In this document: positions 52,283 to 52,302 of the stretch, one piece after another | Layout: every line of letters begins with the position of its first letter | Numbering within the stretch: the stretch's first letter is position 1 | NCBI RefSeq assembly: GCF_003019035.1 | Contig: NZ_CP027447.1 | Source: Escherichia coli | Lineage (GTDB): Bacteria; Pseudomonadota; Gammaproteobacteria; Enterobacterales; Enterobacteriaceae | Reading direction: 5' to 3' (one strand) | Length of the DNA: 64,000 bases | The notes under the pieces: generated by a model | The model's database searches: none | What the model saw: the letters and a program-made list of their open reading frames with translations, nothing else | What the model was told of the DNA's origin: nothing | Position numbers and translations under genes: made by a program

Positions 52283-52302
52283 TACTGATATTTTGTACAG
52301 TA
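52283..52302. promoter_or_regulatory. LexA-box-like site in the polB promoter region
   Basis: TACTGATATTTTGTACAGTA, a CTGA-N8-ACAG dyad (one mismatch from CTGT-N8-ACAG) 55-75 bp upstream of the polB start; polB is a known SOS gene. Confidence 0.4.

Follow-up and report, generated by a model that had tools for sequence, protein, structure and literature searches.

A variant allele of the polB (dinA) SOS box at the border of a small-gene islet in Escherichia coli

The window analysed here, a 64,000-nt stretch of Escherichia coli DNA, matched E. coli SCU-301 (NZ_CP051751.1) with 100% identity over the region described below, and the features of the locus are collected in Table 1. Between polB and araD a 1435-bp segment (52274-53708) takes the place of the usual 32 bp, the whole araD-polB gap being 74 bp in ordinary E. 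coli such as strain 042. For this segment, referred to here as the islet, RefSeq lists three plus-strand genes, all as hypothetical proteins, which lie on the strand opposite polB and run away from it, as an earlier note had proposed and as the annotation bears out. The GC content of the islet was 31-45%, against ~55% in the flanks, and its edge was at 31-37%. Homology with island-free E. coli stopped at 52273, 10 bp on the polB side of a LexA-like dyad, which places this dyad just inside the replaced segment. The dyad and the island are thus neighbours, as had been claimed, but not at the claimed 30-50 bp: the replaced segment already begins at 52274, and the first gene, g1, starts only at 52528, 226 bp beyond the dyad.

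Table 1. Features of the polB-araD junction, with window coordinates
Feature	Position	Strand	Basis or remark
polB (dinA), DNA polymerase II, 783 aa	49878..52229	minus	ORF with GTG start; RefSeq annotation of NZ_CP051751.1
Conserved hairpin, 10-bp stem and 7-nt loop	52247..52273	minus	fold -24.2 kcal/mol, z = -3.6
Predicted polB -10 hexamer TATAAT	52259..52264	minus	in hairpin loop; role inferred
Box-hairpin spacer	52274..52284	minus	length fixed across lineages (CAG + 12 nt + AACCAGG), sequence hypervariable
LexA (SOS) box of polB	52283..52302	.	sequence, score, same position as K-12/042 box
AT-rich leader from box to g1	52303..52527	plus	islet promoter presumably within
g1, 110 aa	52528..52860	plus	no Pfam family; probable immunity protein
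g2, frameshifted (57-aa and 88-aa pieces)	52873..53201	plus	RefSeq has the 3' piece only (52935-53201, 88 aa)
g3, 147 aa	53217..53660	plus	SUKH-1 / SMI1-KNR4-like immunity protein
Terminator-like hairpin directly after araD	53671..53703	minus	14-pair stem, then T run
araD, right-hand islet border	53707..54402	minus	stop codon TGA here, TAA in island-free strains

The islet proved rare among finished genomes: 5400 of 5426 complete E. coli genomes matched only the polB and araD flanks, and islet DNA was found in two, SCU-301 and EC42405. The exact g1 protein was present on ~204 E. coli contigs, and variants of the islet occurred in E. albertii, E. fergusonii and Escherichia sp. MOD1-EC7003, a member of a cryptic Escherichia lineage. 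Its occurrence was confined to Escherichia, at the polB-araD junction.

Neither g1 nor g2 matched any entry of Pfam, NCBIfam or PADLOC, and a defence system was rejected as a description of the islet on these grounds; g2 was found intact elsewhere, at 109-115 aa. The g1 protein had only three close clusters, and a profile search recovered 81 remote relatives of ~108-110 aa (E <= 0.001), sharing invariant F, P and W residues and a G.GW.P motif; the 50 relatives that were scanned gave no Pfam match. One relative with 42% identity is encoded by a gene that overlaps a 163-aa ORF by 4 bp (contig L028, 3513-4333), and directly upstream of this pair lie a DUF2750 gene and an Rhs gene whose product carries Ntox8 as its toxin tip. 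The arrangement has the apparent layout of an orphan toxin/immunity pair with the g1 relative, P0014, in the immunity position, and the uncurated g1 family is a candidate new immunity family. The g3 protein matched Pfam PF09346 weakly, with 17.3 bits (E = 0.0078) against a gathering cut-off of 25.4; weak PF09346 matches were likewise obtained for a relative with 41% identity and for the second E. albertii copy, while NCBI names the g3 protein SMI1/KNR4, as it does the EC42405 orthologue. Based on the context of the g1 relative and on the SUKH-like g3, the islet looks like a cluster of orphan immunity-type genes that is AT-rich and horizontally mobile. It shares with the SUKH/SMI1-KNR4 and Rhs/CDI orphan immunity clusters the small, tightly packed, AT-rich and strain-variable genes, the SUKH-like g3, and a g1 relative that takes the immunity position in an orphan Rhs pair. 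It differs from them in that no toxin gene or toxin fragment adjoins it (no toxin gene lay beside g1 in the window), and that g1 and g2 have no curated family; the immunity function is putative.

On the plus strand, window positions 52283-52302 read TACTGATATTTTGTACAGTA, and the same 20-mer on the minus (polB) strand reads TACTGTACAAAATATCAGTA. The sequence confirms the CTGA-N8-ACAG dyad that had been noticed there, which can also be written as CTG-N10-CAG, with TA flanks at both ends, as in the 20-bp LexA consensus TACTG(TA)5CAGTA; its distance to polB, previously put at about 55-75 bp, was measured as 54-73 bp upstream of the GTG start codon (52229, minus strand). The core CTGATATTTTGTACAG at 52285-52300 carries the invariant LexA bases, CTG-N10-CAG. 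Because such bare cores are common (30 matches in the 64-kb window, compared with 12.5 expected), full 20-mers were scored instead. For this, a Berg-von Hippel heterology matrix was assembled from 26 E. coli LexA boxes of the literature, omitting polB, and made symmetric; the matrix was afterwards calibrated against published heterology (HI) values. The dyad was the top LexA-like 20-mer among the 63,981 positions of the window, with an HI-like score of 9.18. Shuffling the 298-bp intergenic region from polB to g1 gave an equally good site in only 15 of 20,000 cases, and shuffling the whole 64-kb window in 16 of 300. The matrix agreed well with the published HI values listed in PMC11228462 (r = 0.97), and after calibration the dyad scored ~9 (about 9.1) on the published scale, below the cut-off of 15 that is usual for a LexA-repressed gene (PMC11002266). 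The polB box of K-12, with a published HI of 13 (PMC11228462), had an HI-like score of 15.5 on the present matrix, and the orthologous polB boxes ranged from 7.1 to 15.5.

Between the dyad and polB lies a conserved hairpin, with a T run behind it on the minus strand (52249 down to 52244). The hairpin loop contains TATAAT (52264-52259, minus strand), the sole hexamer of the region to match the -10 consensus at 6/6 positions; some strains have TATACT instead. The dyad is positioned 20 nt upstream of this perfect hexamer, at what would be the -35 position, with the start site predicted from sequence. The hexamer CAGTAC, 17 bp upstream of TATAAT, spans the edge of the box and has one position in common with TTGACA, and the geometry implies that a poor or absent polB -35 element would fall at the junction of box and spacer. 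The polB promoter looks like a -10-driven promoter without a -35 element, and the polB promoter-mapping papers of 1990, such as that of Iwasaki, reportedly agree with this. A reported RpoS dependence of polB (PMC6590174) also fits this reading.

In island-free E. coli the hairpin is found 32 nt past the stop codon of araD, where it resembles the araBAD terminator; when the islet is present, this role passes to the terminator-like hairpin directly after araD. Among E. coli, E. whittamii, Kluyvera, Enterobacter and the enterobacterium MGYG-HGUT-00110, the polB-proximal hairpin differed by no more than one loop base, and in Escherichia, Kluyvera and Enterobacter the DNA to its left and right has diverged freely. 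The hairpin is kept even in K. georgiana, in which a small extra ORF, and not araD, lies immediately upstream of it. This pattern suggests a role beyond araBAD termination.

The position of the dyad relative to this hairpin was informative. In E. coli 042, the araD stop codon is followed by tgaCTGTATAAAACCACAGcc, which contains the known polB/dinA box GACTGTATAAAACCACAGCC; after the box come 12 nt, then the hairpin sequence AACCAGGCTATAATCAAGCCTGGTTTTTT, and ~20 nt further on the GTG of polB. The dyad in the window stands in identical register (CAG + 12 nt + AACCAGG), the conserved AACCAGG being the start of the hairpin, and together with its HI-like score this substantiates the earlier description of it as a LexA-like box of the polB promoter. 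Using one genome per species, the hairpin was found upstream of polB in E. coli, E. whittamii, the islet carrier Escherichia sp. MOD1-EC7003, Enterobacter sp. JUb54, Kluyvera sichuanensis, K. georgiana, K. ascorbata and MGYG-HGUT-00110, and in every lineage of this search a CTG-N10-CAG was located 12 nt from AACCAGG. The sequence of the 12-nt spacer was unrelated between lineages, and, depending on the lineage, what lies beyond the box is the islet, other genes, REP-like DNA or the araD stop codon. The register was also kept in E. fergusonii and in a duplicated promoter copy of E. albertii, where the box CCTGTACAAAACAACAGT is embedded in the 3' end of a DUF218 gene. The dyad thus shares its register with the 042 (K-12-type) box and with the boxes of ten other lineages. 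This fixed register across genera is strong evidence for a polB operator, and since it is constant with or without the islet, the box is an element of polB and not of the islet. Weaker evidence came from the islet haplotypes themselves: the inner 18-mer ACTGATATTTTGTACAGT was invariant in 11 of 11 islet-edge haplotypes, while the adjoining 10 nt occurred in four versions. This invariance is only mild evidence (P roughly 0.02-0.05), because the whole leader is highly conserved and has invariant runs as long as the box.

The polB/dinA SOS box is already known, and the dyad is a sequence variant of it. The K-12 box GACTGTATAAAACCACAGCC is quoted in PMC11228462 from Lewis (1994), Fernandez de Henestrosa (2000) and Courcelle (2001), and polB is an established LexA target, with a 4.7-fold, LexA-dependent induction by AZT (PMC11228462) and LexA regulation also described in PMC6590174. 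The islet allele and the K-12 box belong to the same gene and strand, have the same distances to the hairpin, the -10 hexamer and the GTG, and share the CTG-N10-CAG core as well as the left half CTGTA.AAAA; they differ at 6 of 20 positions, with the flanks being TA...TA here and GA...CC in K-12. The TA...TA flanks make for a better fit to the consensus than in K-12 (HI about 9 as opposed to 13). The upstream DNA is also different, being the AT-rich islet here, whereas the K-12-type box has the araD stop codon two bases away. Compared over the 16 core bases, the islet allele CTGTACAAAATATCAG has 13 in common with the E. fergusonii/E. albertii box and likewise 13 with the K-12 box.

Taken together, I consider it likely that the dyad is the polB (dinA) SOS operator, in the form of a variant allele that travels with the islet, and that the islet is a separate unit without direct LexA control. 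As this would be the textbook SOS box of polB, no new regulatory element need be proposed. A LexA dimer would occupy the CTG-N10-CAG box, and with a start site predicted ~7 nt past TATAAT, the core of the box would extend from ~-48 to -33. Bound LexA would block the contacts of RNA polymerase at the place of the -35 element until LexA is cleaved, stimulated by RecA, after DNA damage; since the box covers the -35 place and the polB -35 itself is negligible, LexA is expected to hinder polymerase binding. Given its closer fit to the LexA consensus (HI ~9 rather than 13), the islet allele is predicted to keep basal repression of polB no looser than in K-12, and the induction ratio would be at least as large. 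The islet, by this account, would be transcribed from a promoter of its own within the 225-bp leader.

DNA polymerase II takes part in damage tolerance and mutagenesis. The natural Escherichia alleles of the polB operator differ by ~4 heterology units, from which strain-to-strain differences in both the basal level and the induction of this polymerase are predicted. The promoter forms a rigid module consisting of the box, 12 nt, and a hairpin with the -10 in its loop. In the compared lineages, insertions (REP-like DNA, small genes, immunity islets) pile up just upstream of this module and never inside it; the islet site is a recurrent insertion spot of this kind, and the pattern illustrates how selection shapes an insertion hot spot.

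An alternative is that the same LexA box acts as a shared divergent operator, repressing a plus-strand promoter of g1-g3 and rendering the islet SOS-inducible. This was the direction of the earlier note, which had suggested partial SOS control or read-through control of the island genes. The box is indeed the nearest recognisable regulatory site upstream of g1, the genes are divergent, and precedents exist in ssb/uvrA and, in Salmonella, nlhH/higB-2 (PMC8072944); LexA boxes are moreover known at distances of up to 236 bp from the ATG, as for tisB (PMC8072944). A consensus scan of 52230-52530 detected no plus-strand sigma-70-like promoter at threshold. Relaxing the scan gave weak -10 candidates at 52412 and 52460, i.e. 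110-160 bp from the box, and an extended -10-like string, TGaTATTTT, on the plus strand of the box itself (52286-52294), so that the scans offered no better islet promoter than this string. However, a TGnTAT-like string is built into the LexA consensus CTGTATAT and is therefore not independent evidence of a promoter; it has no -35 partner, and transcription from it would need a 227-nt leader with no detectable structure. A weak plus-strand promoter within the box could in principle exist, and LexA would cover it fully.

The comparison with uvrA-ssb speaks against a shared operator. Both loci have a single LexA box between divergent transcription units, but in uvrA-ssb the promoters of both strands overlap the box, whereas here no second promoter was detected on the opposite strand apart from the box-intrinsic TGaTATTTT, and the divergent gene is 226 bp off. 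Nor was there a conserved association of the box with a divergent gene, the box being kept at polB with or without the islet, including in lineages that have no divergent gene there. Relatives of the islet genes argue likewise against shared control: no LexA box was found near the g1 relative (L028, L029) or the g3 relative (L019, L020) in their other genomic contexts, and in the DUF218/SUKH module that E. fergusonii and E. albertii have at this locus, the polB box was the only one. Considering the missing promoter, the distance to g1 and the boxless relatives, partial SOS control of the island was left unsupported, the sequence evidence speaking against it, and the shared operator appears improbable.

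Read-through control was unsupported as well, and was rejected on geometry. polB is transcribed away from the islet, so that read-through from polB gives no sense islet RNA, while transcripts running on from araBAD would enter the islet in antisense orientation and come up against a strong terminator at 53671-53703.

In a more far-reaching version, the polB operator would double as the operator of g1-g3, and DNA damage, including that caused by the DNase toxins of competitors, would induce the orphan immunity genes; I regard this as very unlikely. Colicin operons, in which tandem LexA boxes sit right on top of the toxin/immunity promoter, would be the precedent for LexA-controlled immunity, in contrast to the single, polB-owned box found here. 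If a shared operator were nonetheless real, the islet would be a chromosomal analogue of the SOS-controlled immunity of colicins, released by LexA cleavage.

Two further candidates within the leader were rejected. A tisB/dinQ-type SOS toxin was considered for a 23-aa ORF at 52316-52387, which begins 14 bp from the box; the ATG of this ORF, however, is not conserved, being ACG in 4 of 11 haplotypes (EC42405, L004, L005 and L013), and the peptide has no transmembrane stretch. A structured RNA or sRNA was dismissed since the leader had no Rfam match at E <= 1 and an unremarkable fold (z = 0.11).

It is also conceivable that the box arrived as the islet's own regulatory site and replaced the resident polB box by an accident of the insertion point. 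The box does lie within the segment that differs from island-free E. coli, only 3 of 11 spacer bases match, and among complete E. coli genomes the allele occurs only together with the islet. Against this, chance would have had to recreate the 12-nt register to the hairpin, which is kept across islet-free genera, and all 11 examined g1-carrying haplotypes adjoin polB, with no independent unit of islet plus box among them. The likeness of the allele to the E. fergusonii/E. albertii polB box (13 of 16) fits the acquisition, through homologous recombination, of an entire polB-promoter haplotype from a donor, and an islet-borne origin of the operator seems a slim prospect. A chance palindrome that LexA does not bind in vivo, with SOS control of polB lost, is hardly credible: AT-rich DNA at the islet edge, the commonness of CTG-N10-CAG cores and a half-site reading CTGA instead of CTGT would allow for it, but composition-matched shuffles rarely did as well (the 15 of 20,000 given above), an HI of ~9 is within the range of validated boxes, symE and ybfE also have CTGA, and the dyad is invariant across haplotypes and in exact register with all other polB boxes.

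Returning to the box as a polB operator that travels with the islet, the flanks give an indication of how the two were acquired. The polB and araD flanks of SCU-301 showed 97-98% identity to E. coli 042 and 91-93% to E. albertii, and as they are nearer to 042, the islet and the operator allele were probably imported together by recombination with breakpoints very near the islet ends.

Additional rearrangements were observed around the junction. In E. albertii (L026, CP024282.1, 4403-4800; also L025), a second copy of the polB promoter, with box, hairpin and GTG, follows g1-g3 and includes ~300 bp from the 5' end of the polB coding sequence, which are called as a 101-aa fragment; between this polB fragment and araD there is a DUF218 gene, then another SUKH gene. 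The E. albertii locus is a mosaic in which the cassettes are delimited by duplicated polB promoter DNA. On the far side of araD, the araD-araA spacer (window 54403-54655) was 253 bp long, compared with 168 bp in E. coli 042, and its BLAST alignment contained a duplicated overlap of ~85 bp, consistent with an extra copy of a REP-like repeat.

Elsewhere in the window, the runner-up among the LexA-like 20-mers was TACTGTTTATCTTCCCAGCG at 36931-36950, with an HI-like score of 9.9. It falls within the 3' end of the apaH coding region, where there is no promoter, and was set aside as a LexA site and as probably due to chance. The site is located just before the convergent ccdB, which is part of a toxin-antitoxin pair, ccdA/ccdB, that is annotated on the chromosome between folA and apaH (window ~36320-36870; NZ_CP051751.1 4116814-4117364).
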